A DNA stretch of 64,000 nt, taken from contig OY761611.1 in assembly GCA_963664875.1 (NCBI GenBank), positions 3,488,001-3,552,000 of the forward strand. Reading direction: 5' to 3'. Both the position numbers and the translations under genes were made by a program. The DNA comes from Candidatus Kapaibacterium sp. GTDB lineage: Bacteria; Bacteroidota; Ignavibacteria; Kapaibacteriales; UBA2268. The notes below the pieces were generated by a model. That model did not search any database, was not told where the DNA came from, and worked only from the letters and a program-made list of their open reading frames with translations. This document shows positions 11,569-51,000 of this stretch, in pieces; position 1 is the stretch's first letter, and every line of letters begins with the position of its first letter.

Positions 11569-11597
11569 GAGTCTTTATACAAATACTTTCAGAACAG

Positions 11598-11785: not shown

Positions 11786-11860
11786 AAATCGAACGAAACC
11801 CAAACTCAAAATCCTCGTTTCTTCCATTAGATACAGATTTCATTTATAAGGAGAATTACC

Positions 11861-31828: not shown

Positions 31829-31854
31829 AGTTTAATTTATTTGGGATACTATAT

Positions 31855-32298
31855 ATGAAAACAAATAAAATCATAATAAGTTTTTTAGCAGCTTTGATAA
31901 TAAATGCATGCTACTGCAATAGACATAACGTTATATTTGATTATAAATCAAATATATACTTACAAAACAAAGAAATTAACTATATACTAGAGGTTTATAA
32001 AATTGAAAAAATTGATGCTAATCATAGTCTTCGAAAAGATTATAAATCTCGTTTAATTGGTAAATTAGAGTTGTATCTATTAAGGGATTCTATGACGATG
32101 AATAACATCGATATTGATTTAGCTCTTAGTTTGAATAATCAATATCTATCAAAACATATAGGATATAAGAATAGATTTAAATGGCCTCCTTCTTTAGATC
32201 TCTTCCAAGATAGCATCTTTTCTGAAGAACTATATTGGTATTTTGAGGAAGACATATCAGAAATAAAAATTACGAGTTTACATATTGATAGTTTATAA
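31855..32298 (+). CDS. Putative immunity lipoprotein for Rhs 1
   Basis: Immediately downstream of the toxin; lipobox-like IINAC. Confidence 0.6.
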   Translation: MKTNKIIISFLAALIINACYCNRHNVIFDYKSNIYLQNKEINYILEVYKIEKIDANHSLRKDYKSRLIGKLELYLLRDSMTMNNIDIDLALSLNNQYLSKHIGYKNRFKWPPSLDLFQDSIFSEELYWYFEEDISEIKITSLHIDSL

Positions 32299-32360
32299 GG
32301 CAGAAGCATTTAAATCTTTTGGGCTATAGCCCTAACCCAGCTTGAGTTTTTAGTAGATAG

Positions 32361-32531
32361 CAAACCGAAAAATTTGATTATCTTCCATTTGGAAAGCTAG
32401 CTCCTGCCATAAGTGGCGACGACGACCAGCGCACCGCCTACCTCGGCAAAGAACTTGACCGAGAAAGCGACCTGGGCGACCACGGCGTGCGTAAAGTAGA
32501 TTACGGGCTGGGCAGGTTTACTACTATAGAT
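32361..32531 (+). pseudogene. Orphan Rhs core fragment
   Basis: Translates TEKFDYLPFGK..DQRTAYLGKELDRESDLGDHGVRKVDYGLGRFTTID; 32424-32531 is nearly identical to 31106-31213. Confidence 0.88.
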
Positions 32532-32540
32532 AGTATAAAT

Positions 32541-32585
32541 ACAGCTAACAGGGAATTGAAATAGTCTCTTGTTAGCTGTTTTTTT
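32541..32585. terminator. Hairpin between Rhs locus and integrase
   Basis: ACAGCTAACA...TGTTAGCTGT followed by TTTTTT. Confidence 0.6.
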
Positions 32586-33755
32586 ACTCCCCAAAAACCT
32601 TGCTAAAACTCTCTATTGCTTTATCTCTGCTCGGATTAACATAAATATCAAAACTACGCCGATTCCTATGACCGGATATTTTCATCACCTCTTCGGGAAG
32701 CATTCCGGCTTTCAATGCAAGAGTTATCATAGTTCGACGGGCAGTATTAGAGGAGATGAGCTTGTATTTTGGAACAACATGTTCTTCTTTAACTATTCCA
32801 CGTATAATTGTATATGCAATCGGTTTAGTAATTTCTGCATCTTTGCAAATTTCTTTTATTTTGGAATTGTAGGTCTTTGTATCATTTTGTGGAAATTGTT
32901 TAGGATATTTAAGTAATATCCCTTTTATATATGAGTTAAAAGGAACAATAACATTTTCTCCGGTCTTCTCGGTAGTAAGATATATCCGCTGATTATCCAT
33001 ATCTAATTTAGTCGGATTTAATCGGAGCAAATCAGAAATTCTAATTCCGGTATGAAGCTGAATCAGAAACAAATCCTTAGTGATTTCTAAATGTGGCTTA
33101 GGAACTAAATCTTTAACCGCCTCTATTTCTTCAAAATCAAGGGTAACATACTTGTTCTCCTGCCCTTTATGTGTCGTAGCAGATTTAATATAAGAGCGAA
33201 ACTGAATAGTGGTAATCAAACCTTTAGAAGCGTAATAGTTAAGAGCAGTCTTAATATTCTTATTAGCAATATAAACTGTATTGTTGTTTAGACCCTTATT
33301 ATGCAGATAATTCTCAAATTTCTTCCAAATAATCTCATCAAGATTACGAATAGTTATTACAATTTTGGTTTCATTCTGAAAATCAGCAAGTTTCTTCTTA
33401 GAGTTATAAAAGCACTCGTTAGTGCGATCAGCTCGAGTATGTTTAGTCAATTCAATATAATTAGAAAAAAGAGTTAGAAGGTCTTCTGCATCATTGTTAC
33501 TAATATTAGGATTTTTCAGCTGTTTTATATACTCCTTAATATCATTTTTGTTAAGCACAAGATTTTCTAACTTTGCCTTTGAGCAGAAATTGTTTATTTT
33601 AGACTTAAAGTCATCCAACAGCACATTAGTTTCATCGCTATGAAGCACTGAAGGCTTAATACGATTATGCTTTTTATCCCAAGCTTTGGTTTTGATTTTA
33701 ATTCCGGTAGAAACCTGAACACGAAAACCATTGACAGAGACGTTCATCATAATAG
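32584..33755 (-). pseudogene. Tyrosine integrase copy A: 5'-truncated, catalytic His replaced by Asn
   Basis: Near-identical to 55538-56758 but lacks the first ~16 codons and the upstream region; reads SNTARR versus SHTARR. Confidence 0.8.
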
Positions 33756-33991
33756 TAGTATGGTGTAGTACATGTAAATATTATATATATAAGTTATATA
33801 TGCAATATTTCTATTTTAACAACTAACTTATAACTAACACTATTATCTTTACACAAATGCCGCTAATCCTTTGAGTTTTATCTTATTTGTATCTAAATTT
33901 ACAAATATTTTACAAATATAAACAATAGATTTTTGAATTCTGGTGGTTTATTTTATTTTTGAAGTATTGATAATCATAAGTATGGAATCAA

Positions 33992-34963
33992 ATGGAAGAC
34001 AAAAACAATATTAAAATAGACAACAATCTGATAAAAGCCACAGCCGGATTAAACATCGCTCTTGAAGTCTTAATAAAAATGAATAAAGATGACAAATCTC
34101 TGCTTAAAGATGTTCTTACTAAATATGATTTATCAGGCTTTGCTTTACAACAAAGTAATAACACGAGTGATCTTACTAAAGAATTAGATAGATTATTTAA
34201 AAATGGTGCTGTGGAGAAAGCAATTAACAGTTTATTGAAACAAGTGCCATCTAATTCACTCACAGAAAACTATGAGATGAAGGCAAAAAAATGCTCGACC
34301 TATGAAGAGGAATATCAAGTTTACTTAGAATATCGAAAAAGATATAATGCTATTGTTGCTAATGTTGCAAATAACCTTAAAATAGCTACTCTACAAGCAT
34401 TTACTACAATAGACTTGTTTTCTTTCGATAACATTGAGCTTGCAAATAATGCTAAGTTTGTTTTACAGGGATTTTTAAAACTGTTGTTGCTACAAATTGA
34501 TGATTTTCCTTCTATCTCTGATGAAATTGAATCTGAGATTGCAAGATTGAAAGAGGACATCAGAGATAAGCGAAAGAAGTATTCAGAGGATGCTACAATT
34601 TTAAAAAGTTTTGATTATATGCTGACGACTGAATCTCCAACTAAAACTACCAGGATTATTTTTGCTCTTATTGCTAATGGTATTATTCTTGATAAAAGTG
34701 GCAATAAAATCCCGATTGAGCAAGCAAAACGAGTTACAAAAGATTTCATTATTGCATTCAACGGCACAGATCATGCCTATACTAAAACCTTCATGCATAA
34801 ATTGGATGACTTGAAGAAGGAATATATTTTTGATTGGGTTCCGGAACAAAAAACAAAATTTGTTAAAAAATCTAATAAAGAATATACAACTAACATTTTG
34901 GACTTCATCGAATTAAATGAAGCTTTGTTTGAATCTTTTAACTCGCTAATGAAGAAGAAATAA
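33992..34963 (+). CDS. Hypothetical protein
   Basis: 323-aa helical ORF in the same position (upstream of the HTH gene) as 15528-16667. Confidence 0.65.
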   Translation: MEDKNNIKIDNNLIKATAGLNIALEVLIKMNKDDKSLLKDVLTKYDLSGFALQQSNNTSDLTKELDRLFKNGAVEKAINSLLKQVPSNSLTENYEMKAKKCSTYEEEYQVYLEYRKRYNAIVANVANNLKIATLQAFTTIDLFSFDNIELANNAKFVLQGFLKLLLLQIDDFPSISDEIESEIARLKEDIRDKRKKYSEDATILKSFDYMLTTESPTKTTRIIFALIANGIILDKSGNKIPIEQAKRVTKDFIIAFNGTDHAYTKTFMHKLDDLKKEYIFDWVPEQKTKFVKKSNKEYTTNILDFIELNEALFESFNSLMKKK

Positions 34964-35118
34964 ATGCCGAATTTACGGAACCTATCCGGTTCCGAGTTTT
35001 TAGCGATCTTTCAAAACATAGATTATAGCTGAGTTTCCCGATAAATATACGGAATTCCGAGTAATTCACTTCATTATAGGATATAAATATATTATTTTGG
35101 AGTAAAATATTTGGAAAT

Positions 35119-35451
35119 ATGTTTAAAGAAAGAATGGGTGGAAAAATGACACAAACCAATTTTGAAGAATTTATTCTTGTACCGAAGGCTTATTACAACG
35201 AATTGCTTCGTCTATCGGATTTGAAATCGAGTCCGGTAGAAACTACAGTTGCGGAAGTTCAACCAAATGCAAAATATCTTACAACTGATGATGTTATGGA
35301 AATGTTAGGTGTGTCAAGAACTACAATCAAAAATTGGCGTGATAACAAATTATTACCATATCGTAAATTTGGTAGAAGCGTTAGATTTACTATGGAAGAT
35401 GTCAAGAAATTAGAAAGAGAAAAACTTGGGAAAAGCCTACTAATCAGCTAA
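35119..35451 (+). CDS. HTH_17 excisionase/AlpA-like protein
   Basis: LTTDDVMEMLGVSRTTIKNWRDNKLLPYRKFGRSVRF; paralog of 14708-15052. Start may be 35146. Confidence 0.88.
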   Translation: MFKERMGGKMTQTNFEEFILVPKAYYNELLRLSDLKSSPVETTVAEVQPNAKYLTTDDVMEMLGVSRTTIKNWRDNKLLPYRKFGRSVRFTMEDVKKLEREKLGKSLLIS

Positions 35452-35475
35452 TGGTTCTATTTTATACTTTGATAT

Positions 35476-35516
35476 AAAAGCATACTTTTCGGCAATCGTA
35501 CAAAGTATGCTTTTTT
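35476..35516 (+). terminator. Intrinsic terminator
   Basis: AAAAGCATACTTT...AAAGTATGCTTTTTT. Confidence 0.65.
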
Positions 35517-35942
35517 GCTTGAATCTATACCATTTCACAGTCATCTTAATTATCCTCTACTTCAATCCGGTTAAATGCTGCAATTTTAAATTTACGCTAA
35601 AAAATGTCTGCACTGAATTAAACAACTCCAAGTCCATCATATTCATAATCAATCTCGTAATCAAAACCGATTTAAGTATTTCAAAAGAAATGCATTATAT
35701 TCTTTATGATCTCAGTTTCAAATTTCTCCGGGATAATTACGCAACTCATAATTGACTCTAAGAGCTAAACATTAAATTTGCACTTCTAAAATGCCGAAAA
35801 ATTCCAATTTGTACCCTAAAAATACACATTAGTACCAAAAATATCCGATTAATGCCGATAATGTTTGAAAAGTACCAAAAAAATCCAATATTTGCCGATT
35901 GATTCCAATTAGAATAACTAAGATACTTAATGGAAATTTGGA

Positions 35943-36158
35943 CTATAGTTTAAGATAATCCTGCATTAGCTTCATTTTTGCTTCTTCTGAGAGAACTTTG
36001 TCGTCTTTTGGAGAAGGTTTTTCTTTGATAAGTTCTTCCATGACTTCAGAATCCAATGGTATTTCTGCACCTATCATTCGCATGTGAAAGTTTGGATGAT
36101 TTTCAGGGTCTGCTACTGCTTTTTTCCAAGCCGGATTTATATTGTCAAAATCTAACAT
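35943..36158 (-). CDS. Small conserved hypothetical protein (71 aa)
   Basis: MLDFDNINPAWKKAVADPENHPNFHM, nearly identical to 11861-12076; AGGAG RBS. Confidence 0.8.
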   Translation of the reverse strand: MLDFDNINPAWKKAVADPENHPNFHMRMIGAEIPLDSEVMEELIKEKPSPKDDKVLSEEAKMKLMQDYLKL

Positions 36159-36637
36159 TGCAAGTCTCCTTATAAAATAAAATCTGTATTTAAATATTCG
36201 GAACGAAAACATTAAGTGATGTTTGCCCTGAGAAAATATAATGTGTTTCAAAGGCATCATATTTGGGCAAGACAAAACAAGATTCTAAGTCTTAACTTCC
36301 TCTCAAATCGGAGCAAACTTCAGATATTTGTATATTTTTTTTATTGTTAATCGAATTCAATTTTGGTGCGAGCTAAGTTTACTCACCTGTCAGCTTTAAA
36401 GTCGAAAAGAAATTAGCCACCAATTTTACCCTTTTTTACACTTTCTGACTGTCACAATTTGTAAAATATAGTGTCAGCAGATGTCAGATACTGTAAGTGA
36501 TTGTAAAAAAAATTCAGCAGTTGTAAAATTTGTGTCAAAAAGTGTAAATAAATTCCGGTAAACAAGCCATATCAGAAACATCCTATAATTTGCAGGAAAA
36601 TTTTGTATCTATGACAGGACTCAGCACAATTTCCGAC

Positions 36638-36853
36638 TTAAAGCTTTATATATTTCTGAACAAGTTCAACCTTTTCCTCCGGAGTCAGCACTTTGTCGCC
36701 TTTTGAAGTTGGTTCTTCTTTGGTTAGTTCTTCCATGACCTCCGAGGCAAAAGGGCTGTCTCCGCCAAAAATGTCCGCATGGAAATGTGGATGATTTGCA
36801 GGGTCTTTTAATGCTTTTTTCCAGCCGTAATATTGATTGTTATTATCAGACAT
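36638..36853 (-). CDS. Small hypothetical protein, diverged paralog (71 aa)
   Basis: WKKALKDPANHPHFH...SEVMEEL..DKVL..YIKL. Confidence 0.75.
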   Translation of the reverse strand: MSDNNNQYYGWKKALKDPANHPHFHADIFGGDSPFASEVMEELTKEEPTSKGDKVLTPEEKVELVQKYIKL

Positions 36854-36970
36854 TGTGGATTTCTCCCAAGTTTCAAAATTCAGTTCCTAATATAAGAAAC
36901 GATGATTTTGGGATTGGGTTACGCAGAATGGGACTATTTTATTTTATAAAATAGAATCAGGCAAATGGTA

Positions 36971-37073
36971 TTTCACTGCCGTTTTCTTTCAAGACGCTAA
37001 GTGCTGTATATACTGTCTTAGCTGCTTTTTTCGTGTTCTGGATATTTCTTTTTTTTTTTGGGTATCTCTATTG
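36971..37073 (-). pseudogene. Mrr-N-like remnant (second copy)
   Basis: Reverse strand reads KAAKTVYTALSVLKENGSE. Confidence 0.4.
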
Positions 37074-37086
37074 ATATTTTTTTGCT

Positions 37087-38394
37087 CTAAAAATTGTTAT
37101 AAATTTTTAAGTCAATGTTAAAATTTTTGTTTTCAATAATATGGATTATTTCTTCCTTTTCAGATTCATGATCTCTTCTACCATGAATTTGACCATTTGA
37201 GTTTATACATTCAATTAAACTGGTAAGGTTATTTTCAGAAAAGTTTTGCATGTTTCTTAATATGATACCTGCGTATATCAAATTTGCTTTATCATAGCTG
37301 CAAGCGTGACTGTAGATATCTATTAAAAATGAATGTGCATCTTCAATCAAATTGTTCTGTTCTGCTCTTTTACGTAAGATATTAAAAATTACCATACAAC
37401 TATAAATTTCACTATTGCCAAGATTAGAAACTTCTAAACTAAATCTAGAAGAGACATTTGAAAGATGATTTTTAATATCATCTGATTTATAATGTGCAAA
37501 AGCAAATGCTTGAATATCATTTTTGATAGCAACATCAATTTTGGAAAGAGTTGCTGGACTTAGAATATTGTTGATATATAGTTCAGGGAAACTACTAGTT
37601 ATTTCTACTAGAAACAAAGTACATTCATCTTCTATTTTGTTAAAATAATCAGGTTCATTTTTTATTCTATCAACAATTATAGAATTTCTATATCCCAATA
37701 AGTGTGCTAAAACAAAATTATTATAATTCCGATTATCTTTACATTCTGATGTGGTACACAACATTACTAATTTCCATAAATTCTTGAAAAGTTCGAGCAA
37801 TTGATCGTCTCTCAATTTGATAAAGTACTTTTCTTTGAGATGTAAAATCATAACTTCTTTGTCTCCATAATCCTTGGAAAACTTTTCAATGTCTAGTATC
37901 ATCTCTTTAAAAATACTGTTTTTTGAGAGATAGGGAGGTTTTGATAGTATGGATTCTATCATGGTTTTTATGAGACTACTGACTGTTTCTTTATTCATAG
38001 GAGATAATTTATAGGAATCATCAATAATTGGATGTGCACATATATTCCTCATGTTTCGCAAATTTTCAAGATATGCTTGATCAACTGTTGATAATAGGCT
38101 TGTATTCTTGCAAACTTCTTCAATCAGAATATTTTCCCATCGTGGAGATTTCGGATTATCATTTTGTTCTCTTTCAATCTTATTTAATATAGAAATTGCT
38201 TTAGAATCTTGGTATAGTTCTTTTAAATCTCTTAACTTAAGCATTAGATCCGTTAGCACTACTATATATAAAACAACTGTACATGCTCGATAACATCCGT
38301 TATTGTAAGTTGTTACTACTTCTTTGAAATATTCTTTAGTTTCTGGCGAATATATATAATTCACTGCATATTCAAGTGAAGAATTCTGTAGCAT
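37087..38394 (-). CDS. HEPN-motif protein with helical C-terminal region
   Basis: N-terminal YFKEVVTTYNNGCYRAC helix and Rx4H motif RNICAHP. Confidence 0.7.
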   Translation of the reverse strand: MLQNSSLEYAVNYIYSPETKEYFKEVVTTYNNGCYRACTVVLYIVVLTDLMLKLRDLKELYQDSKAISILNKIEREQNDNPKSPRWENILIEEVCKNTSLLSTVDQAYLENLRNMRNICAHPIIDDSYKLSPMNKETVSSLIKTMIESILSKPPYLSKNSIFKEMILDIEKFSKDYGDKEVMILHLKEKYFIKLRDDQLLELFKNLWKLVMLCTTSECKDNRNYNNFVLAHLLGYRNSIIVDRIKNEPDYFNKIEDECTLFLVEITSSFPELYINNILSPATLSKIDVAIKNDIQAFAFAHYKSDDIKNHLSNVSSRFSLEVSNLGNSEIYSCMVIFNILRKRAEQNNLIEDAHSFLIDIYSHACSYDKANLIYAGIILRNMQNFSENNLTSLIECINSNGQIHGRRDHESEKEEIIHIIENKNFNIDLKIYNNF

Positions 38395-38452
38395 AAGATA
38401 CCTTTAAATTTTTGCAAACATATTAAAACAAGCATTTTAGTAGCAAATCTTA

Positions 38453-39955
38453 TTAATAAGAGAACAACTGGACTTCTTCAGGTTCAATAACAACAGGCAT
38501 TGCTTCTAATATGTCTGAATTTATTATACTAGTGGTTTTAAAAATTTGGACAATATTATCTTGTAGCCACTCTAAATTCCATATATTTTCTGAATTTGAA
38601 TGAATGGCTTTGCAAAGAGGTTCTTTTGGTTCGAAATTATAATCATATTTATGTATCATTCTTTGAAGCCATATTTCTAGAATTCCATTATGTGGAATTA
38701 ACTTGAATTTTTTCATGATTCTATTGATAAATATTCTTTGAGAATCAGCTGGTTTTAATTCTATCAAATCAGATAATATTGCTGTAGCAATAGGAAATAT
38801 CCTAGGATTTTTTATTGTTAAATTGACAATAATTGAAGAAATGACTTCAATATTCATATATTCTATTAGAGTACTTTTTTCATTATGAAAATATCTGTTA
38901 AAATCTGAAATTGCTCTTTGTACTGTGCCGGAATTTGGATGTTTTAAACTAAAGTGATAAATATTGAGAAGTTGTTTTTGGGCTGACAATTTATCATTTG
39001 ATTGCATAAACCAATCAATTTTATCTTTCTTCACCGAACTTGTGACAATATCATCAGATAAATAAGTTTTGCTGGTATTTAGTTTAAGTCCTAAACCTAT
39101 CAAAACATCATTCAAAATTTTTGCAATATCTTGAGCCAAAACTGGATTTTTTGTAAAAATTCTATAGTCATCTCGATATCTTAGAATTTTATATTCTGAT
39201 TGGTGCATATTCTTTTTTTCAAGTTCTTGTGAAAGAGTCTCATCTGCATACCCCAAAACTATCTCTGCTATAAAGTCAGACAATACACTACCTTGTGGTA
39301 TTCCATTTGTTTGTCCATAAGACATGCTTTGTAAAGCAGTATCAATTTTATTTCCCAGCAAAGATTGATCGGTACGATTCTTCTTAGAATAATCTTTTCC
39401 ATGTATAGCCCAAGGGATGCTATGGGTATATATAGCCCCATAACAATCTGTTATATCTGTAGTAAATATGTATTCAAATTCGAGAGATAGTTCTAATGAT
39501 TTTTGTTCAATATCTAACCACCAAGTTCTAACTCTTTCTGCTTTATCTGACTCATCTGTATTCGATTTCCCAGGATAGCTAGAGCATTCCACTACAGAGT
39601 TCTTAAAGTCTTGAAATTTATTTAAAATAAGTTCCCAATTGTGAGATTCAGTTAAGGTATTGACTAAATCAACATAAATAAGGGGATGAATGAGTTGAAA
39701 AGGACGCCATGCGTACTGACCATCTTTGTTACTAATAAGTTCGTAATTCACATTTGAATAATCTTTTGGTTTGTCACCTTTTAAATAGCTGTTTATTGAG
39801 TTGCCGTTTATCCGTTTAGATAAATTATCTAATAAAGGCTTGAAATCATAGTATTCCGGTAAATCTATAGAGCAATAGTTTTTACTTTCCATGAAGAATG
39901 CATTTGCTTCTTCATGAGTCATGTCGAGTATTGAAGCGTAGTCTTTCATCCCCAT
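38453..39955 (-). CDS. AbiP2-like (UG/Abi class) reverse transcriptase
   Basis: TDITDCYGAIYTHSIPW, QTNGIPQGS, catalytic RYRDDYRIF, GLKLNTSKT and a helical C-terminus (FSLKHPNS, EIWLQR, PEEVQLF). Confidence 0.88.
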   Translation of the reverse strand: MGMKDYASILDMTHEEANAFFMESKNYCSIDLPEYYDFKPLLDNLSKRINGNSINSYLKGDKPKDYSNVNYELISNKDGQYAWRPFQLIHPLIYVDLVNTLTESHNWELILNKFQDFKNSVVECSSYPGKSNTDESDKAERVRTWWLDIEQKSLELSLEFEYIFTTDITDCYGAIYTHSIPWAIHGKDYSKKNRTDQSLLGNKIDTALQSMSYGQTNGIPQGSVLSDFIAEIVLGYADETLSQELEKKNMHQSEYKILRYRDDYRIFTKNPVLAQDIAKILNDVLIGLGLKLNTSKTYLSDDIVTSSVKKDKIDWFMQSNDKLSAQKQLLNIYHFSLKHPNSGTVQRAISDFNRYFHNEKSTLIEYMNIEVISSIIVNLTIKNPRIFPIATAILSDLIELKPADSQRIFINRIMKKFKLIPHNGILEIWLQRMIHKYDYNFEPKEPLCKAIHSNSENIWNLEWLQDNIVQIFKTTSIINSDILEAMPVVIEPEEVQLFSY

Positions 39956-39957
39956 CT

Positions 39958-42900
39958 CTAACCCTCACTCTCAATAATACTTATCTCATCATCAGTCAAA
40001 TCATATAACTTATATACCAGCCTGTCTATTTCTGCCTCCGCTTCGCTTGTGTCTGCTTTTGCGTCCGCTTTCTTGGCTGCCAGTATTTCGTTTACAAGGG
40101 ATATAAATGGTTTTTCTTCTTCTTCCGATGGAGGCTTAACTGGTATTTCTTGGAATATTACTTTCCTAAGTTCTTTGCTGTTCCCCTGCAATTCAGGGAA
40201 ATTATCAGTAAAACAAAATTTAAATAGTTTAGAATTCAAAAAGCCTGTAAGATATTCAATTTTTTGCCCAACCATCATAAAGACTTTATCGTTGAAAAAG
40301 AAATTATCTCTATCAAAAACAAATGGAAGAAATTTTGTGATTACAGGATATATAATTTTAGGTTTCAAAAATGATTCATAATAGGCTATTGTGTCTTGTA
40401 GCTCAAACCATTGATTCGTAGTTTTTTTGCGACTGCCTTTTTTACCTGACTGCTCCAATCTTTCTCGACCAAAGCTTTCTAAATGAGACTTAATTGCAGT
40501 GTACTTATCAATATCAAGTTTTAAAGCAGGAGCAGTAAAAATCAACCACAAATCTGGATCATCTATTCCATATCTTTTTATATCTCTTCCTCTAAGTAGA
40601 GGTTTTATAATTTCGGCACTTTTAGGATCTTTTGCAATAAGTTCATCCTTTTTCTTTCCATCGATTATAAATGCATCGTTATATCCTGTAAGTATCCCTC
40701 TATAAATTTCAATATCCCAATCTTTTAATTTGATACCTTGGGCTTCTACTTTTTGTTTGATTTGATATTTTACTTTATTGGCAATAACCCAAGATTCGTC
40801 TGTCAGATCTTTAAGAATGATATGATTACTGTCAAAGTATTTTTCTATTTCCTTTGCTTCTTCCTGTTGAGCTCTGATAATTCTGAGAGCTTCAACTTTA
40901 TTATCAAAACTCTTATTGGAAAAGAAAGTAACTGTAGTCAAAACAGTTGCACTATCAAAGATATGGCAATCAGAAAAATCAATTACTTTGTGTATGTTTA
41001 CATCTTCAATAAAAAACTTTCTGAGAGATTTTCCATAATTAGTTCTGAGCCATGCACTTCCCGTAATGAAGCCCTGGTTTCCCTGAGCTTTCAAGATATT
41101 TGCAGCAAGCTCATAAAATAGCACATACATATCACCTGTTTGAGCATAAGTTTTATATCTGTCTTTAAGAAATACAGTTCGGTTATTCAAAGTCTGCAAC
41201 TGAATATACGGCGGATTACCAATAACGGCATCAAAGCCAATGAAGTTACCATCTTCATCCAGCACCTCAGGGAACTCAAAACGCCACTCAAAGGCATTTG
41301 AGTATAGAGTTTTTTGCTTTTCGTCGTACTGCTTGCTTAGCTCAGTGAGTTCATGCATCATTTTGTCATGTTCTTTTTTCCAGTCATCGTAGTAAAAGCT
41401 TTTCTTTGTAGAATCTTGATGAGTATCAATATCTGATCGTAAATTCTTCTTCTTTATGTAGATGTCATCACTTGGATTCGCAAGCATAGAAAACTGATTT
41501 TTGAGGAAATCAATATCCTTTCGTGCCTTCTGCCTAACAGCTTTTTCCGAAGTAGTTTTATAAATCAGCACCTGCTGTTTATATTTATTAGTAATACTTC
41601 GGAAAGTATTCCTTTGTCCGGCACTAACCTGACTTTGCTTATCGTGCAAATCAAAACGGCTCACAAGCGAATTGCCGCACTTAATATTAATATCAATGTT
41701 AGGAAGAGTTTCAAGCTGAGTGTAGTTTGAATCTGCAGTGTAGTAAGTATTTTTAAGCAGTTCAATCCACAGACGCAGACGGCAGATATTCACAGAGTTA
41801 GGGTTAATATCCACACCAAAGAGGCAATTTTCGATTATTGTCTGCTTCTCATGGAAAAGAGTTTCCTGTAGTAGCTGCTGATTATCAGTATTTATGGGAT
41901 TACCTTTAGCATTTATCTTATATTCAAAGATGTCTTCGTTGCTATCGGTAACCACCAGCTCATCATTTTGAATTTCAATTTTATACTCCTTAACTTTCTT
42001 TTCTGTGCCATGATAGCAAAGCACACCAAGCTCAGATTTGAGAGCAATTATCTCATTTAGAGCAGAAACCAAAAAGTGTCCCGAACCCACAGCAGGATCA
42101 CAAACTTTTATACTATTTATTATAGCATTGGCTTCCGAAATATCATCTATCTTATTATATAGCTTGTCTATATTATCACATTCCCAGCCCTTAACATCTT
42201 TAAACTTCTGCAGCACAGCACGACGAATAGTTTCCCGGCAGATATACATAGTAATATATCCGGGAGTAAAGAAAGAACCCTCTTTATAGCCATTGATTTT
42301 TTCAAAGATTAGACCCAAAACAGAAGCATTGATAAGGCTCTTTTTATCTTCCTTAACATCTTCAGCACCTTCGGATGAAAAATCATAAGCATCAAGAAAC
42401 TTAAATAGATATTCCAAAATAGGCATTTCACCGGAAAGGCGTTTGCCTTGCTCATCTTTCAGCACAGTTTGGCTGTAAAGACTCAAGCGGTATCTGTCTC
42501 GCAGGCTATTGATGCGAATAGACTTACTCTCAATCTCACTTATTTCAAACAAGGAACTATTTAGATAAGGTAATTGTTTGAAAGGACTACGAATGTCATC
42601 GTCACGTTCAGTTATTGTTTTAGCCAGCACACCAAAGAAAAGCTCATTTAGATCATCAAATTCCTTGATAATATTGTGGTCTAAGAACCTAAACGATTTA
42701 TTATAGTCATGATACGACAAAAGCTGAGCTTCGAGCAACTTTAGAAACAGAATACGGTTAATCCAGGTAATATTCAGCTCGAGAGCGATATTAAAGAGCT
42801 GGTCTTCTTTAGTTTCTCCAAAATCTCCAACATTGGCTATATTATTGAGAATGTCTTCAGTTTTGAGATTCTTAATAGTATTTTCAATAAGCGAACCATT

Positions 42901-43722
42901 GCTACGCTTACTTTCCTGCACTCTGCTAATTAGCTTTTTGCCGCCATCGGAAACCTCTTCTAACCCTATAATATGTAACAGCTCAAAGTAAAACTGCTTA
43001 TTGAGGGAATTTGAGTCATTTGCAAAAGCCTCTTTGATAAGAGTAGGAGGCGAAAATAGCTTGAAAAGAGCAATAAGTTTTTTACTATTCTCTATAGTGA
43101 GCTCATTCTGATATTCTCTAATATTAAAGTAAGTGCAGTTAAGCTCTTTATCAGAAGCCTCAATAAACGGTTTGGCTATGTTATTATAAAATACCTCTGT
43201 ACTTAGACTTTTGTCGCTGTTCCATTTATTAAACTCAGTTTTCAGCTTAGTTTTATAAAATGCCACATCAAACTCGTGTGCATCAAAAACAAAAAACTCG
43301 TGCAGATTAGTAACAACAATATTTTTAACCTCATAGTTGTTCTTCTCGATTCTCTCTCTGAAATAGTAAAGAATAGCTTCGTGCAGAGCTTTTTTGTTAA
43401 AGTCCGTCTGAGACATCATTTCAGTCTTGTTATTCGGATGCTTTACTTCAAGAATCACCCCAACATTAGCTTGGTCATTTTTACCCAGATAAATAGCAAG
43501 ATCCGCTCTACCGGAAGTATTGATTTCAAAATCCTGATAGAAAGTATTTTTCAGAAAATCCCGAAGCACCAGTTTGAGATGTTCTTCAGTTTCATTGAGG
43601 TTAATATTATCAAGGTAAGTACTAAGCAGAGATTTGAAATTATCAAACTCATTTTTAGCAATACTCACCTTACGATAAGCTTTATTCAGAGCCTTAACAG
43701 GAGCAGTTACAAGTAGTTTCAT
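39958..43722 (-). CDS. Type IIG fused restriction endonuclease/N6-adenine methyltransferase (Eco57I/TaqI-C-like)
   Basis: Nuclease RADLAI..ILEVK, motif I DPAVGSGHFL, motif IV IGNPPY, TRD with PLLRGRDIKRY, and C-terminal EIDRLVYKLYDLT. Confidence 0.92.
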   Translation of the reverse strand: MKLLVTAPVKALNKAYRKVSIAKNEFDNFKSLLSTYLDNINLNETEEHLKLVLRDFLKNTFYQDFEINTSGRADLAIYLGKNDQANVGVILEVKHPNNKTEMMSQTDFNKKALHEAILYYFRERIEKNNYEVKNIVVTNLHEFFVFDAHEFDVAFYKTKLKTEFNKWNSDKSLSTEVFYNNIAKPFIEASDKELNCTYFNIREYQNELTIENSKKLIALFKLFSPPTLIKEAFANDSNSLNKQFYFELLHIIGLEEVSDGGKKLISRVQESKRSNGSLIENTIKNLKTEDILNNIANVGDFGETKEDQLFNIALELNITWINRILFLKLLEAQLLSYHDYNKSFRFLDHNIIKEFDDLNELFFGVLAKTITERDDDIRSPFKQLPYLNSSLFEISEIESKSIRINSLRDRYRLSLYSQTVLKDEQGKRLSGEMPILEYLFKFLDAYDFSSEGAEDVKEDKKSLINASVLGLIFEKINGYKEGSFFTPGYITMYICRETIRRAVLQKFKDVKGWECDNIDKLYNKIDDISEANAIINSIKVCDPAVGSGHFLVSALNEIIALKSELGVLCYHGTEKKVKEYKIEIQNDELVVTDSNEDIFEYKINAKGNPINTDNQQLLQETLFHEKQTIIENCLFGVDINPNSVNICRLRLWIELLKNTYYTADSNYTQLETLPNIDINIKCGNSLVSRFDLHDKQSQVSAGQRNTFRSITNKYKQQVLIYKTTSEKAVRQKARKDIDFLKNQFSMLANPSDDIYIKKKNLRSDIDTHQDSTKKSFYYDDWKKEHDKMMHELTELSKQYDEKQKTLYSNAFEWRFEFPEVLDEDGNFIGFDAVIGNPPYIQLQTLNNRTVFLKDRYKTYAQTGDMYVLFYELAANILKAQGNQGFITGSAWLRTNYGKSLRKFFIEDVNIHKVIDFSDCHIFDSATVLTTVTFFSNKSFDNKVEALRIIRAQQEEAKEIEKYFDSNHIILKDLTDESWVIANKVKYQIKQKVEAQGIKLKDWDIEIYRGILTGYNDAFIIDGKKKDELIAKDPKSAEIIKPLLRGRDIKRYGIDDPDLWLIFTAPALKLDIDKYTAIKSHLESFGRERLEQSGKKGSRKKTTNQWFELQDTIAYYESFLKPKIIYPVITKFLPFVFDRDNFFFNDKVFMMVGQKIEYLTGFLNSKLFKFCFTDNFPELQGNSKELRKVIFQEIPVKPPSEEEEKPFISLVNEILAAKKADAKADTSEAEAEIDRLVYKLYDLTDDEISIIESEG

Positions 43723-44520
43723 AAAGTATATAGGGAGAAAGAATTCAAATAAAATCCACACTTTGGATATACAATAAGTTAGCAAATATTTAAGAAAAAG
43801 AATAAAGAAATATTCTATCTGAAAAGAAAATTGTAGAAATGCAAAAACAGAATCAAAAGGACTGACTTGATATAAATAAATTGGGTAATAATTCTTTATT
43901 TCAGCAAAAATTCGGCAGTTTAAATTAGACTAAATCAATTTATAGACAACGTATCATAAAAATATTAGCATAAGTTCAAATGCTATAAAAAAAACTTTAT
44001 GCAAAAAAAGGCTTTGCAAATAACTTTAAATCATATAACTTTGTATAGTTCATAGAATAAATGTTGAAATATAATATAAATTACATTGCTGCATAGCAAT
44101 AAATATTTCCTTAATATAAAGCAGAAAAAGTCTCTGGAGGTGCATGGGATGGAAGGATAAGTCATTACATTAAGGAATGAATCAGTTATGCAATGCTTAA
44201 ACAAATTTGATTTAAAAGACCTTGTTCTTGTGAAAGCTATTAGAACTATTAAAATTTTCGGTATAATGCTTTTTTTATTTTCATAAGAGAAGTGCCTTGA
44301 TAGAAATTTGCTTCTTGATATTAATTATTTAATTCTGATTTGAAGATTCAATATAATTTTAGATACTTAAAGCCATTGTTTGAAGAGGTATAAACGAAAG
44401 TTAAAATTTATCAGAATTGCTAATCATAGCTGCACTTAAATGCCATTATTGCTCTGCAAAATATCCTCGATATTTATTGCATTCTTTCCTTTATTGAAGT
44501 TCAAAATATTAGAGATTTTA

Positions 44521-47500
44521 ATGAAAACGATAAAACCAATCATTTGGCTTTTTTTACTGGGAAATATGTATCTTTTTGCAGATTATCCCACAGCTGAAGT
44601 AAATTACGATGCCCCTATTCGGATTATCTCGGAAGATGTGCGTGAACTTGGGAATCCTGTCGGTTCTATTGAGGGGATTGCAGATGTTAATTTAGTAGGC
44701 AATTCAACGTATTCTATACCAATACTAACACCAAAAGGCAGAAAGTCTTTAGAACCATCACTATCAGTTGTTTATTCAAGTGGTGGGGCTAACAGTATTT
44801 TAGGGTTCGGTTGGTCTTTGAGTGGATTGTCCTCTATAAGTAGGGTTCCAAGTAATAAACTTATTGATGGAGTGAATGATAAAATAGATTTTAGTATTGA
44901 TGGTAATTTATCTCTAGATGGAATAAGGATGGTCAAAATTTCTGATTCCCCTTATACTTGGGCTCCAATCAATAATAATAACTCAAGGCTAACTTGTTCT
45001 ACTGATGCAAATGGTAATATTCAGACTTTATATTTGCAAACTAAAGATGGCAAAATCATTGAATATGGCGGAAACGAAAACTCCAGATTAAAAAAAGATG
45101 GCATTATATTGTCTTGGAATATCTCAAAAATCTCTGACATTTATGGAAATTTTATTGAATATTACTATGGTAGAACTGATGGCACCACTAATCAGAAAGG
45201 ATTAGAGGTGTGGATTGAAAAAATTGAATACACAGGAAACTCTCAAACAAATGATGCACCTTTTGCACAAATAGTATTTGACTATAGTATTAGAGAAGAT
45301 AAAACATGCGCATTTTCTGCTGGGATTATGTTGCAGTCTTCACTGCTTCTTGATAAGATTTACGTACAAATGAAAGACGAAGAATCAGGAGTATTCACTA
45401 ACATTAGAAGTTATAAGTTTAACTATATTAAGAATCATTCCTCGCAATTAGTGGAGGCAGTGGAATATGGGAAAAATGAAAATGAAGCTTATAACTCGAC
45501 GGTATTTGAGTACAATTATGATGTAACTCTTGCTGAAGGCAATTCGTTAGATATAATGGTTCATAATGTAAAAGATTTTAATAATACTATGACGAATAGT
45601 AATCTTGTTTATACAGCGACTGGTTCGTCAGTAATACTCAATGAAAATCAAACTTATTATTTTGGAGACTTCAATAATGATGGTATCCAAGACAGAATTA
45701 TTGTTCAATATAATTATGCTAGGATAGACAATATTAATAGATCTAGATGGTTTCTTCAATTTGGCAGATATGTTGATTTGGGAGATGAAACAATTGTTAA
45801 GTATAAGAGTGTTTTAAATAAGTGTGAATTATTCACCTCTGTAGATCAAGAAACATTTGTAACTCATTTATTGCGTAACAAAGTATCAATTATTGATATC
45901 AATAATGATGGTTATTTAGATATCCTCATTCCATATCTTAAAAACACACAAACTGACGACATAGAAAATTGGATGGCAGGTCCAGAGGAAGACTTAAATC
46001 CAATTAATATGTTGTATGATGAATTGCATCTTGAAGTTCACTTGAATTCATTTGGAACTTTCCCAGAAGAAAATTCGATGACATATGTAATAAATGATGA
46101 TCGACTCAAACAAGATGGTGATGACGCCGATTTTGCGTTCACTAATGAAGAATTTCATTTCGGAGATTTCGACGCGGACGGGATGATTGAAATACTTTTG
46201 AAAGCGGAAACTTGGGATTATTATGATGGATTCATCACTAGTTTTGCAAGGAATTCTAACAATGGAGCAAATGATTATGGATTTCTTTGGTATTTAGATT
46301 TAGTTAGTTCTGTAGGAACATTACCAACTGATGATCATGCATTTTCCATAACCTGCAACGGATCTAATTCGGGTAATGGTCTATCTCCTTTTGTAACACA
46401 TGATGATGAAAACTTTAATGTAATTGTTGCAGACTTCAACTCAGATAGCAGATCAGATTTTATGGTAGTAACCGATTTTATTAATTCACTTGGACATTCA
46501 GAAACAGTTTATACATTATTGAATGAACTTGAAGTTTTATTCGAGTTTAGTGACATTCTACGAAGTACGGATATTGAGTCGGGAGACAAAAAACATTGCT
46601 ACCAAGGGGATTTTAACGGAGATGGTTTATTTGACTTACTTTATCAAAAAAATACAAATTATGAAGGTGAAGAAAATATCTCTCCTTGGTGTATACGATT
46701 TTGGAAAGGAAACGAGTTTTCACCTGAAATAATAGTTTCAGAATTAGAAAATATAAATTGGGGAATACCATATCAGGGAAGGCATCTAATAGTAGGAGAT
46801 TTCAATTTTGATGGCAGGAGCGATGTCTTGACTTATCTAAATACGTATTGTAGAGATATAGTTGTGGATGAATATACTATAAGGACAAGAGGAGGAGATA
46901 TCTTTGAAGGATCCACCACATATACTGACACCTGTAATAATATCGATCCGTACTATTATGACAGTAACTTTGATGATCCAAGTAATCCATCTACAAAAAA
47001 AGTGATTGATGGAAATTCGTATGAAATAATATCACAATCAAATGTGAGTTCAAGCATTGAATATAAGCTACATATAGTAAATTCTTCATATTACGATATT
47101 GATGGAAATCCTGACATCAATTGGAATACATATTCTTACAGTACTGGATTGTTACCATATGACCAAGATAATCCATACGATTTAACTCTTAGTTTTCTTC
47201 AAATGAATGCTATTCCGGAAATTTCATCAGTCACTACTGAAGCTAAAAATTTTAGTTTTAGTAGTTTGAAATCTATGGATATAACAGGTCACGGTTTGAT
47301 ATCGTTGCACAATTGTAAAATCAAAAACTATCTATTATCCTTCAATATAAGCAATAGTTCATCTTTTTTATCTAAGGTTTACGATGGTTTCGGGAATTCG
47401 ACTGAATTTACTTATCAAACTTTGTCACAAACTAATGATCCTGATTTAGAGACCCCTGCTTATTCAGTAAATGAATTCAGATCAGGTAGTTACCATAATA

Positions 47501-48009
47501 TTTCAGGTGGGATAAAGATTGTATCAGAAATGCTTCAAAAAAACTCTTCTGGAAGTTGGTACAATAAAATGGTTTATAATTATCAGGACGGAATTATTAA
47601 TAGAGATAAGGGATTTATAGGCTTTTTAGAGCTTAAACGTAATCAGAAGGATTACAATTTAGGAGACAAGAGTGTAATTACTAAGAACGCAATACGTCAT
47701 AATATAGCAGAGTTATACCCTGAAATTACAGAAAAATACTCTGGTGATTCTTTTATTTCAGAAACATATAAAGACTGTAGAAGTACCGATTTAGGTAATG
47801 GTAGATATTTTTTATATGATTATCAAGTGATTACTACAAATCAGTTAGATGGATCAAGAAACCATAAAATTACAGAATTTGATAATGATCAGAATCTTAC
47901 GCGAGAAAAGGAATTCTTAGAATTTGAGGGGCAAACCATCTACCAAACAGAAAAACTATTGACTACTCAACTCAAGAAATTGTTTGGTGTAAAACTCTCC
48001 CTCAAGTGA
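44521..48009 (+). CDS. Rhs toxin 2, N-terminal part (SpvB/TcB-like domain and FG-GAP repeats); frameshifted
   Basis: Signal peptide; YSIPILTPKG..PSLSVVYSS..GFGWSLSGLSSISR; GDFNNDG, GDFDADG and GDFNGDG repeats; GFIGF. Confidence 0.85.
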   Translation: MKTIKPIIWLFLLGNMYLFADYPTAEVNYDAPIRIISEDVRELGNPVGSIEGIADVNLVGNSTYSIPILTPKGRKSLEPSLSVVYSSGGANSILGFGWSLSGLSSISRVPSNKLIDGVNDKIDFSIDGNLSLDGIRMVKISDSPYTWAPINNNNSRLTCSTDANGNIQTLYLQTKDGKIIEYGGNENSRLKKDGIILSWNISKISDIYGNFIEYYYGRTDGTTNQKGLEVWIEKIEYTGNSQTNDAPFAQIVFDYSIREDKTCAFSAGIMLQSSLLLDKIYVQMKDEESGVFTNIRSYKFNYIKNHSSQLVEAVEYGKNENEAYNSTVFEYNYDVTLAEGNSLDIMVHNVKDFNNTMTNSNLVYTATGSSVILNENQTYYFGDFNNDGIQDRIIVQYNYARIDNINRSRWFLQFGRYVDLGDETIVKYKSVLNKCELFTSVDQETFVTHLLRNKVSIIDINNDGYLDILIPYLKNTQTDDIENWMAGPEEDLNPINMLYDELHLEVHLNSFGTFPEENSMTYVINDDRLKQDGDDADFAFTNEEFHFGDFDADGMIEILLKAETWDYYDGFITSFARNSNNGANDYGFLWYLDLVSSVGTLPTDDHAFSITCNGSNSGNGLSPFVTHDDENFNVIVADFNSDSRSDFMVVTDFINSLGHSETVYTLLNELEVLFEFSDILRSTDIESGDKKHCYQGDFNGDGLFDLLYQKNTNYEGEENISPWCIRFWKGNEFSPEIIVSELENINWGIPYQGRHLIVGDFNFDGRSDVLTYLNTYCRDIVVDEYTIRTRGGDIFEGSTTYTDTCNNIDPYYYDSNFDDPSNPSTKKVIDGNSYEIISQSNVSSSIEYKLHIVNSSYYDIDGNPDINWNTYSYSTGLLPYDQDNPYDLTLSFLQMNAIPEISSVTTEAKNFSFSSLKSMDITGHGLISLHNCKIKNYLLSFNISNSSSFLSKVYDGFGNSTEFTYQTLSQTNDPDLETPAYSVNEFRSGSYHNISGGIKIVSEMLQKNSSGSWYNKMVYNYQDGIINRDKGFIGFLELKRNQKDYNLGDKSVITKNAIRHNIAELYPEITEKYSGDSFISETYKDCRSTDLGNGRYFLYDYQVITTNQLDGSRNHKITEFDNDQNLTREKEFLEFEGQTIYQTEKLLTTQLKKLFGVKLSLK

Positions 48010-51000
48010 TTAAGACTTCACAAAATCATGTAGATGATAATCTATATGGCAATAGTTTTTGGACTCATGTTGAATTTGATTATAAAGCCAATGGCGACGT
48101 AAAGAGTAGAACAAATATGATAAACAACTTAACTGCTGAGTTTAGTTATGATATTTACGGAAATCTTCAGCAATCACGTTCCTATTCTTTAACCAATCCA
48201 GACTTATATGAAAAAGTACAAAGAATGGGCTATGATAATTTTTCGCATAGATTTATTGCATTAGATACAAATTCTCTCGGTCAAATAAAGCAGTTTAAGT
48301 ACAATAATGAATTTGGCAAAGTAAAGGAAGAAATTGAATATAATGGATTCTCTACTTTGACGAATTATGATGATTTTGGTATTAAAACTGAAGAAATAGA
48401 TGAATATGGAAACAAAATTCTGTTTGTTTATGATTGGAATGATCAAAATGAAACTATAAATATCAAAGGAACTGACAAAGATTATGCCTTTACTCTAAAT
48501 AAGAAAAGTTTCTTGGCCAATGAAACCATAGCAGAAGCATTGATTACAAAAAGCTATTATACCTCCAACAATATGACTCTAAGAGAAGTACAAGAAATTT
48601 TTAAGTCAGACTATTCACTACCCAAATTAGTAACTATTGACAAAGTTTATTATATGAACTGGCAACTTCGATATGAGTCAGAACCATATTTGAGTACAGA
48701 GTCTCCTGATTTTTGGACTGAATATGATTATGAGCCTTTGAGTGGAAAAGTTAATAGTATTAGCAAAGCTAATGGAAATACTCAAAATACACTATACAAA
48801 TCTATCAACTATGACTTAGAAAATCTAATTTCTACAGAAAATAATCTTCAACAGGATGGAGTGCCTACAGGGTCGCTAGTTAAGGAATACAATGTCCACG
48901 GAGATTTAAAAAAATCTACAGATGAAGCTGGAAATGCGGTTACTTACAACTATTGGAATAGTGGATTACTAAAAAATGTTACTACTGTTGTACTCAATCA
49001 ATCTGGAGCACACTCTATCCAGTTAAATTACGATAATATTGGAAGACGTACACAAATGGTTGATCCTAATATTGGGACACTAAATTATGTGTATAATGAC
49101 CACGGTGACATCATCGAAGAATCAAATCCGAATGGTACTATTAAGACCTATTACGACGATTACGGTCGGAAAGATTCCGTAGAATATTATTTGCCTAATT
49201 CTGCTACTCCATATAACACCGTTTATCATTTGTATGTTCCAATTGACGAGAATGATGGAATTTATGGGGACGGTAAACTTGATTCTCTTTATGAAACTCA
49301 GTCGAACTTGCAGAAGAAATATGTTTATGACAATTATTGGCGTGTTTTGAGCGAAAAACAAAATATTGATACAGAAGCTTTTATACTCGAAAATGTTTTT
49401 GACAAATCCATTGGGAAATTGAAAAGAACAATCTTCAACCAAAAAGACACTATTACATATGCTTATGATAAAAAAGGTTTTATGGTTTCAAAAATTTTCA
49501 ATGGTACTAATAAAGACACTACTTTATGGACGTTGAAAGAAATCAATAGATTTGGACACGAAACTTTAGCTTCAATTGCTGATGTGATAGATTTAAGCTC
49601 TACTTACGACATTTATGGGCTTTTAACAGGAATTAAATATGCGAATTCAAGCAACCAGCTACAATACCAGAATCATGAGTATCTATTTGACCCTGCACGA
49701 CAAACACTTGCATATAGAAAAGATTTACTTGCTGACTTGCATGAGTCTTTTACATTTGGATCTCAAGGTGATAAATCTTTCTTACTCAAACGATTGACAG
49801 GATGGAATATATCTGACTTGTCCGGAAATTCTTGCGGCAATTTTGAAATGAATTATAACGATGATGGTACTATACGAAGTAAAGGACGGGTTGGATTTGA
49901 AAGTAACTACGTGTATTCTGAGACTACTAATGATGTTGAGCCTCTAGATGCAACTCCAACTACTCAATTTCCACAAGCGATTAAGAAATTATCAAGTAGT
50001 TACGAAAATTTGTTCCCATATACTATGACAAATACGATTTTTAATAGTGTAAAAACAATAGAAATGTGTGACAGGAATGCAGTATTTGATTATGGTTTTG
50101 ACTTACAACGATGTAAATATACATACTTTAAAAATGGAGTAAAACAATATACTAAGTATTACTTCCACAATATTGAAAAGACAGTTTTCGAAAATGGTGA
50201 TATAAAAAATACTGTTATAGGTAACAATTTTGCTATTATTACAGAAAATCAGGATAGAAATATTTACTATTTACTGAAAGATCACTTGGGTTCAGTAACT
50301 AAAATTTTAAATTCAGATTTTTCCATTGTTGGTGATTTTAATTATGACCCATGGGGTAGAATGAGAGAAAAAGATAATAACTTCGAGACTTTGAGTGTTT
50401 ATGACGTGCCTTCAGGTTTCGAACTAATAGGTCGTGGTTTCACCGGACACGAACATATACTCGAATTTGGTCTGATTAATATGAATGGTCGTGTTTATGA
50501 TCCTGCTCTTGGTCAATTCATTCAACCGGATAACTTTGTAACTATACCTGAGCGATCAAACTCCTATAACAGATTTATTTATGCTAATAATAATCCTCTT
50601 TCTTTTGTTGATAGCGACGGTGAATTTGTAACATTGACTACAATACTTATAACTGCAGCTATTTTTGGAGCTGGGAATGTTGCTGCCCAAGCTATTAGAC
50701 TGGATGGAAAAATTAATATTGGACAGATATTTTCCAGTTTTGTTCAAGGTGCAATAGTTGGAGGTGCAGTCGCATGTGGCTATTACGGCTTATATTATCT
50801 CAGTCCGACTCTTGCCTACATCACTGCTGGTGTTGCTTATGGACCTCAAGCTTTAACTTATGGTGTTGGTACTTTGTTTGGACTAACAAAAGGTCTATAT
50901 ACAGGAGATTATACAAATTTTTGGAATGCACAAAAAATATTGTTAGGTAACTTTTACATAGATGAAAATCAAAGTTATGGAATGGGGATTCTACAAGGAA

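Follow-up and report, generated by a model that had tools for sequence, protein, structure and literature searches.

Two abortive-infection families behind a type IIG restriction–modification gene in Candidatus Kapaibacterium sp.: probably three independent anti-phage modules in one locus

Introduction

Among the described anti-phage systems, PD-T7-3 is a single-gene abortive-infection system of Escherichia coli that protects alone (Vassallo 2022, PMC9519451), and AbiP2 is a reverse transcriptase (RT)-like polymerase that is classed as a stand-alone protein and whose E. coli homologue likewise protects alone (Mestre 2022, PMC9226505). Here, we analyze a locus of the bacterium Candidatus Kapaibacterium sp. 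in which divergent members of both families follow a type IIG restriction–modification (RM) gene on the same strand. The window, i.e., the whole stretch of DNA that was analyzed, comprises 64,000 nucleotides (nt) of contig OY761611.1 (GCA_963664875.1; positions 3,488,001–3,552,000, forward strand). We consider it likely that these genes are three independent, already known anti-phage modules that are stacked in a mobile and integrase-rich region of the genome of a Bacteroidota member. The locus is an ordinary defence cluster, and it contributes new, divergent members to three known families.

The biochemistry of the two abortive-infection families has been described in relatives. Abi-P2 is a protein-primed, template-independent DNA polymerase, which in vitro yields single-stranded DNA (ssDNA) measuring ~40 nt and >100 nt (PMC9508834). 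PD-T7-3 has been renamed DARNA and is described as a stand-alone HEPN tRNA nuclease (Puteikiene 2026, 10.64898/2026.02.22.705581). According to the same preprint, the E. coli protein has a HEPN domain (R117-x4-H122) at its N terminus and a helical domain at its C terminus, assembles into a homododecamer and cuts tRNA anticodon loops; its activator is ssDNA of ~30 nt or more with several CT motifs, and activation is raised by phage ssDNA-binding protein (SSB) and blocked by host SSB. Finally, an "embedded defence gene" pattern has been described in RM-like operons, and such embedding is explicable by shared transfer and expression alone (10.1101/2024.01.29.577857); neither AbiP2 nor PD-T7-3 is mentioned in the accessible part of that preprint.

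Results and Discussion

Three known gene families in one locus

The open reading frame (ORF) list and translations of the window contain three intact, co-oriented minus-strand ORFs (39958..43785, 38453..39955 and 37087..38394). The RM stop codon TAG is followed by 'AG' and then by the ATG of the RT, leaving a gap of 2 nt, and 58 nt separate the RT stop from the ATG of the third gene. This arrangement had been noted in the original prediction, which was made from the letters of the DNA, and the ORFs and the sequence confirm it. The features of the locus are as follows:

39958..43722 (alternative TTG start 43785), minus strand: type IIG RM enzyme, single polypeptide (PADLOC, Pfam, motifs)
38453..39955, minus strand: AbiP2-type class 1 UG/Abi RT-like polymerase, 500 amino acids (aa) (PADLOC, PDB 7R08, YRDD)
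38395..38452, minus strand: RT–DARNA spacer, 58 nt, with the promoter-like motif TTTG-N21-TATGTTTG at 38415–38447 (pattern search)
37087..38394, minus strand: PD-T7-3/DARNA-family protein, 435 aa, HEPN plus C-terminal helical domain (PADLOC, PDB 9wxf)
37021..37071, strand not applicable: conserved flank beyond the DARNA stop, putative far edge of the swap slot behind the RM gene (match to congeners G404 and G401)

The three genes are not chance ORFs, since each has a full-length family match (E = 1.6e-286, 2.7e-192 and 1.5e-107 for RM, RT and DARNA, respectively). The identities proposed originally, a type IIG RM enzyme, an AbiP2-type RT and a HEPN protein with an R-x4-H motif, are all borne out by the PADLOC, Pfam and PDB matches.

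The RM protein matches the PADLOC model REase_MTase_IIG (PDLC03612) over residues 33–1273 of the TTG-started form, and because this alignment begins only at residue 33, the ATG at 43722 is a likelier start than the TTG at 43785. Pfam places DUF7149 and DUF7814 at the N terminus, together with Eco57I, N6_Mtase, MmeI_Mtase and TaqI_C, and the translation includes DPAVGSGHF, the S-adenosylmethionine-binding motif, and GNPPYIQ (NPPY). By PADLOC and Pfam, the protein has the one-polypeptide IIG architecture, with a nuclease, a gamma-class N6-adenine methylase and a target-recognition domain. Judging by family membership, the enzyme would methylate the DNA of its host cell and cut unmethylated incoming DNA.

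The RT aligns with the PADLOC AbiP2 model (PDLC03744) at model positions 3–484 of 489, and its residues 9–498 align with the Abi-P2 structure, PDB 7R08 (E = 1.1e-89). The motifs VNYEL (residues 69–73), KDGQYAWR (77–84) and YRDD (260–263), which had been pointed out from the translation, are present and occupy invariant columns; YRDD, the catalytic Y-x-DD of the RT palm, is invariant in 17 aligned homologues. The full-length Abi-P2 alignment points to a helical (alpha-Rep) C-terminal domain in place of the thumb. The gene stands alone, with neither a non-coding RNA (ncRNA) nor a fixed partner: the upstream gap is 2 nt, no Rfam family matched anywhere in 35500–44600 at E<=0.1, and the neighbours of its relatives vary across 108 loci. 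The earlier observation that there is no room for a retron-type ncRNA upstream of the RT therefore holds, and a retron was rejected because the 2-nt gap is too small for an ncRNA and the RT is an AbiP2. Among the 25 PADLOC models listed for the RT, Drt4 (E = 8.8e-46) and UG22 (E = 1.2e-12) scored lower and AbiA was absent; a UG22 RT with a HEPN partner was rejected, as the RT best fits AbiP2 and not UG22.

In comparison with Abi-P2 itself (ORF570 of P2-EC30, a P2-like coliphage; PDB 7R08, PMC9508834), the RT shares the full-length alignment, YRDD, the helical C-terminal domain and the stand-alone, ncRNA-free gene. However, it is only ~37% identical, is borne on a chromosomal island outside the P2 hotspot, and lies 2 nt behind a IIG RM gene. 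By analogy with its relatives, it would abort infection via protein-primed, template-independent ssDNA synthesis.

The third protein aligns with the PADLOC PD-T7-3 model (PDLC04108) at model positions 2–428 of 432, and its residues 6–416 align with the 12-chain PDB entry 9wxf, 'Dandelion' (E = 1.2e-53). Its HEPN segment matches the HEPN-only chain 9wx2 (E = 2e-33), and its C-terminal part, residues 160–416, matches PDB chain 9wwz. By PADLOC, 9wxf and 9wwz, the 435-aa protein thus has the full-length DARNA architecture (~430–460 aa, with a C-terminal helical domain); no Pfam family matched it. The R-x4-H motif RNICAH, which had been recognized from the translation, corresponds to R116..H121, and R116, A120, H121 and P122 do not vary among 13 homologues. 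A literature search for 'Dandelion' with HEPN and phage returned unrelated papers and no matching publication. The references of the DRT4 preprint (10.64898/2026.10.21.760695) contain a 2026 Mol Cell paper about a HEPN system that oligomer disassembly activates, but its listing there gives no link to 9wxf.

At E<=1e-30, the DARNA family comprises 297 cluster representatives; the closest relative found is 39% identical to the protein analyzed here. Since the best 150 representatives are only 260–496 aa long, none of them carries a fused domain; a separate search for longer forms also found none, which is weak evidence. Relative to E. coli DARNA and 9wxf, the protein shows a full-length match, a HEPN R-x4-H at a near-identical position (R116/H121 versus R117/H122), a helical C terminus and a similar size, but it is only ~30% identical to the P2-EC30 copy and is found in a Bacteroidota host behind an RM–AbiP2 pair. 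We infer its dodecameric state, tRNA targets and ssDNA activation from the E. coli protein: it would be a HEPN tRNA anticodon nuclease that stays inactive until ssDNA presented by phage SSB switches it on. A PrrC/RloC-type nuclease was rejected, as there is no ABC ATPase domain (no Pfam family) and the DARNA architecture explains the whole length. The trio had originally not been recognized as a named system. The HEPN call was right, but the third gene alone is a named single-gene system, PD-T7-3/DARNA.

Transcription of the three genes

The 2-nt junction suggests that the AbiP2 RT is on the RM transcript, and the two genes are probably co-transcribed. No terminator-like sites were found between the three genes on the minus strand. 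A scan for sigma-70 promoters and terminators gave counts at chance level, and the sigma-70 consensus is not applicable to Bacteroidota. The spacer motif TTTG-N21-TATGTTTG (coding strand), which agrees with what we take to be the Bacteroidota-type promoter consensus, lies 20 nt upstream of the DARNA ATG. On both strands of the window the pattern has nine matches against 5.05 expected, one of them inside the 58-nt spacer; as there are just nine across the whole window, one chance copy in this given spacer is unlikely. DARNA therefore probably has its own promoter there.

The slot behind the RM gene within the genus

Window positions 30001–48000 were compared by blastn with 30 relatives, and three congeners (G401, G402 and G404) were inspected. 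In G404, the same RM gene (88% protein and 86% DNA identity) is followed after 3 nt by a gene for a 299-aa DUF2971 / PDC-S31 protein. In G401, the RM gene is reduced to its first 123 and last 31 bases, 5 bp apart, which constitutes a deletion scar, and the same DUF2971 gene comes next. In G402, the RM gene is present with a different specificity region. The 51-nt flank 37021–37071 is kept 3' of the DUF2971 gene in both G404 (84%) and G401 (78%), and none of the three congeners contains RT or DARNA remnants.

As the same RM gene, or its scar, bears other cargo in that slot in the congeners, AbiP2 and DARNA (2.9 kb) appear to be exchangeable cargo behind a resident RM gene. The DUF2971 gene is itself likely cargo of an abortive-infection type. 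Within this genus, the RM gene would thus be resident at the locus, and the slot behind it a swap site for abortive-infection-type cargo, occupied here by AbiP2 and DARNA. If so, the locus offers a clean example in the Bacteroidota of a resident restriction gene that gives interchangeable abortive-infection genes a place to dock, and it adds divergent members to the AbiP2 and DARNA families.

The RM deletion scar of G401, together with an inverted copy of the slot flanks in the window that holds another gene, marks the locus as unstable, which might mean that the three genes are decaying or silent cargo, remnants without a current function. We regard this as extremely improbable, since all three ORFs are full length relative to the family models and their catalytic motifs are intact.

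The inverted second copy of the slot flanks lies at 9537–12232 of the window (versus 35787–43810). Positions 9537–9887 are 95% identical to 43460–43810 (the RM 5' end and upstream sequence), 11451–11567 are 81% identical to 36973–37089, and 11827–12232 are 92% identical to 35787–36193. This copy encloses a pentapeptide-repeat ORF (9897–11441), which replaces DARNA, the RT and most of the RM gene.

Two further observations concern the congeners. G402 also contains a 136-nt relic of an RM 3' end (L218:5248-5383) that is 89% identical to window positions 39944–40077; it runs 14 nt beyond the RM stop, thereby including the 2-nt spacer and RT codons one to four, after which no further RT sequence is present. 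The 299-aa DUF2971 protein is encoded at L217:8548-9447 and L219:6082-6981, and its PADLOC PDC-S31 match is weak.

Co-occurrence of AbiP2 and DARNA

The original prediction had proposed that ssDNA made by the RT switches on the HEPN RNase as one system, and had suggested a check for HEPN homologues recurring beside AbiP2 RTs and IIG RM genes. Starting from DARNA, we scanned one genome per species by pattern and obtained 143 relatives; the best 80 loci, from 80 species of many phyla, were analyzed with up to 8 kb on each side, and at least 1600 nt were available upstream in 70 and downstream in 68 of these. No RT was found near DARNA in any of the 80 loci (tblastn, E<=1; AbiP2 hidden Markov model, E<=10, all ORFs of at least 60 aa), nor was a relative of the RM enzyme analyzed here (0/80 at E<=1e-5).

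Starting from the RT, we covered 401 genomes sampled from the phylum, together with 80 metagenome loci (the closest ones) and 18 loci from viruses. In the phylum sample, 11 genomes have a strong AbiP2 match, and full-length DARNA occurs in the source genome only; none of the 10 other AbiP2 loci contains DARNA or a related RM gene. DARNA was equally absent from the metagenome and viral loci (0/98, 57 of them with at least 1400 nt downstream), bringing the total to 0 of 108 AbiP2 loci. The genes 3' of AbiP2 are heterogeneous, 49 of 68 being singletons.

By a rough estimate, a single AbiP2 neighbour among at least 143 DARNA loci is about what chance would give, because defence genes make up ~30% of DARNA neighbours and fall into hundreds of kinds. 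Comparative sequence analysis lends no support to RT-to-HEPN coupling, and no such recurrence was seen at the loci analyzed. The prediction had itself named simple defence-island clustering as the explanation to adopt if the genes did not co-occur elsewhere and each protected independently; this is the pattern that we found, since co-occurrence elsewhere is lacking and the E. coli homologues protect alone. Its phrase "three layers of defence" remains fair in a loose sense, but a single coupled system is unsupported. Its choice of ssDNA as the HEPN activator was apt, as ssDNA is the reported activator of E. coli DARNA (10.64898/2026.02.22.705581).

Several observations nevertheless weigh against the independence of the two cargo genes. 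They are adjacent on one strand, 58 nt apart, and fill the slot between its conserved flanks exactly, and single-cargo intermediates are absent in all 4 congeners searched, so that AbiP2 and DARNA may have come in as a unit; with no intermediate observed, the congeners do not separate joint from successive arrival. In a set of 5426 complete E. coli genomes, 15 carry the P2-EC30 allele of DARNA and 11 that of the RT, and a single genome has both, 794 kb apart, where simple arithmetic gives ~0.03 expected under independence. The prophage name P2-EC30 also covers both families (AJ512676.1, AM157365.1); on the side of independence, one DARNA-bearing P2-like prophage, examined over its whole length, lacks an RT in its other hotspot. 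Lastly, the chemistries are complementary: Abi-P2 makes ssDNA of ~40 and >100 nt (PMC9508834), and DARNA is activated by ssDNA of ~30 nt or more, with enhancement by phage SSB (10.64898/2026.02.22.705581). Because ssDNA activates DARNA, cross-talk with AbiP2 is chemically possible.

These points would suit a coupled two-gene module that divides the DRT4 or AbiA design between two proteins: AbiP2 would keep a pool of protein-linked ssDNA, phage SSB would displace host SSB from it, and the resulting complex would activate the neighbouring DARNA dodecamer, whereupon tRNAs would be cut. Precedents exist within the RT class: the class 1 relative DRT4 ties its own ssDNA and phage SSB to an RNase (10.64898/2026.10.21.760695), and the UG22 and UG19-small RTs have separate HEPN partners (PMC9226505). 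Such coupling is nonetheless very unlikely in our judgement. Beyond the empty counts at 80 DARNA and 108 AbiP2 loci, no RT–DARNA fusion was found among the best 150 representatives, the E. coli homologues each work alone (PMC9519451, PMC9226505), and DARNA appears to have a separate promoter. Furthermore, E. coli DARNA requires several 'CT' motifs, while the product of the related DRT4 is purine-rich (10.64898/2026.02.22.705581, 10.64898/2026.10.21.760695). It is just as doubtful that, in this lineage in particular, the two cargo genes were acquired together and now operate as a circuit. Were coupling true, it would show that a polymerase making ssDNA can supply an RNase that senses ssDNA and is encoded by the adjacent gene, so that the ligand of one defence system comes from another; this would bear on the effector of AbiP2 and AbiK and on cooperation between defence systems.

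The locus resembles AbiA-large and DRT4, two class 1 UG/Abi RTs in which a single protein both synthesizes ssDNA and has an RNase, and UG22 with its separate HEPN protein, in that an RT of the same class adjoins a HEPN-kind RNase; phage SSB is a known trigger of both DRT4 and DARNA (10.64898/2026.10.21.760695, 10.64898/2026.02.22.705581). In contrast to those systems, the RT scores as AbiP2, and the HEPN gene belongs to an autonomous family found elsewhere without any RT. The "split AbiA-like architecture" that had been proposed was therefore rejected: the RT is not of the AbiA clade, its best model being AbiP2 with AbiA not among the 25 listed, and the HEPN family is RT-free in 80 of 80 loci.

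With regard to the prototype RT, the P2-EC30 records (L220, AJ512676.1; L221, AM157365.1) include a 471-aa 'Z-region ORF1', a homologue of DARNA with 30% identity and 92% coverage. In a P2-like prophage of E. coli ARS-C101, the Z-region ORF1 gene is flanked by the genes for tail-fibre assembly and for the tail sheath.

Relatives of both cargo genes in restriction-like operons

For AbiP2, 86 loci had room upstream, and 66 upstream ORFs were scanned. A co-oriented RM gene lies directly 5' of AbiP2 in 18 of the 86 loci, encoding HsdS in 15 cases, an HsdM-like protein in one and a type IIG enzyme in two (L125, L179); in their methylase part, the latter are merely 25–27% identical to the RM enzyme analyzed here. 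HsdR follows AbiP2 in 5 of 80 loci, and the order HsdS–AbiP2–HsdR was seen in three. This recurrence fits the "embedded defence gene" pattern. Individually, the loci with HsdS upstream are L117, L120, L142, L148, L150, L157, L163, L170, L173, L176, L178, L183, L191, L192 and L194, and those with HsdR downstream, at gaps of -8 to 76 nt, are L129, L163, L172, L183 and L194. In the clade nearest to the RT analyzed here, AbiP2 is thus frequently embedded in type I RM operons, often in the hsdS-to-hsdR interval; we did not find type I embedding of AbiP2 stated in the accessible parts of PMC9226505 or 10.1101/2024.01.29.577857.

For DARNA, 137 of the 145 nearest neighbours were scanned with PADLOC (both neighbours of L083, L086, L087 and L089 were left out), and 41 of the 137 match models of many unrelated systems, including JetD, ThsB, PD-Lambda-4, IetA, TIR effectors and type I or IIG RM. 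On the basis of these neighbourhoods, both cargo families appear to act as hitch-hikers on restriction-like operons.

In one locus (L066:5981-12220), a DARNA homologue sits between type I S and R genes, the position of PrrC in EcoprrI. In 9 of the 80 loci, DARNA lies directly 3' of a gene for a ~842-aa SNF2/HmaA-like helicase, starting 3–4 nt past its stop (L038, L042, L044, L046, L054, L060, L063 and L077, plus L076 with a split helicase). This helicase gene is the last of an Hma-like operon that also codes for a large methylase and a 166-aa product, and that sometimes includes a HEC-01 cassette; the hosts are Betaproteobacteria, Citrobacter, Akkermansiaceae and Caldilinea. The pairing of a helicase with an ssDNA-activated RNase may merit separate attention.

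As in PrrC/EcoprrI and the embedded defence genes, a putative tRNA-cutting abortive-infection gene, here together with an Abi polymerase, is appended to an RM gene, and relatives of both cargo genes occur inside type I RM or Hma operons. It differs from PrrC/EcoprrI in that the third protein is without an ABC ATPase and the RM enzyme is type IIG, not type I. The resemblance raises the question of whether one or both cargo genes are a PrrC-like back-up tied to the IIG enzyme, triggered, for example, by blocked restriction. The placement of AbiP2 directly behind RM genes in 18 of 86 loci and before HsdR in 5 of 80, that of DARNA in L066, with type I S and R genes on either side, and in 9 of 80 loci behind the Hma-type helicase, and the abortive-infection-like gene in the same slot of the congeners all suit such a role, and guard logic is discussed in the embedded-defence preprint (10.1101/2024.01.29.577857). 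However, the RM families 5' of AbiP2 differ, with at best 25–27% identity to the RM methylase part here, and the E. coli homologues are active without their native neighbours. A guard function is further weakened by G401, which retains its DUF2971 cargo after losing the RM gene, and, according to the same preprint, shared transfer and expression alone can account for embedding. Comparative analysis found no sign of RM control over the cargo genes; we consider a guard very improbable and favour independent modules sharing a locus.

Setting of the locus in the window

The GC content is 0.28 for DARNA, 0.30 for the RT and 0.35 for the RM gene, with 0.34 for the window as a whole. A PADLOC scan of the window found no defence genes beyond these three. 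The mobile-element content of the window comprises HTH_17 excisionase-like genes, a D5-type primase and two tyrosine integrases, and giant proteins secreted by the type IX secretion system (T9SS), a sign of Bacteroidota DNA, are also encoded.

The tyrosine integrase genes (32584–33750 and 55538–56758) have the same orientation and share 98% of their DNA sequence. Between them lie the defence genes, an Rhs/Tc-like cluster and the T9SS proteins, and copies of the integrase genes that are 72–74% identical are present in congener G404. Positions 44440–51482 contain two large co-oriented genes with FG-GAP, SpvB and TcdB-mid-N domains and with RHS repeats, a polymorphic-toxin-like cluster that adjoins the defence genes and is followed by the T9SS-tailed proteins. 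Near the inverted flank copy, positions 12405–15052 contain a D5-type primase/helicase gene and an HTH_17 gene, pointing to a further integrative element or satellite-like unit.

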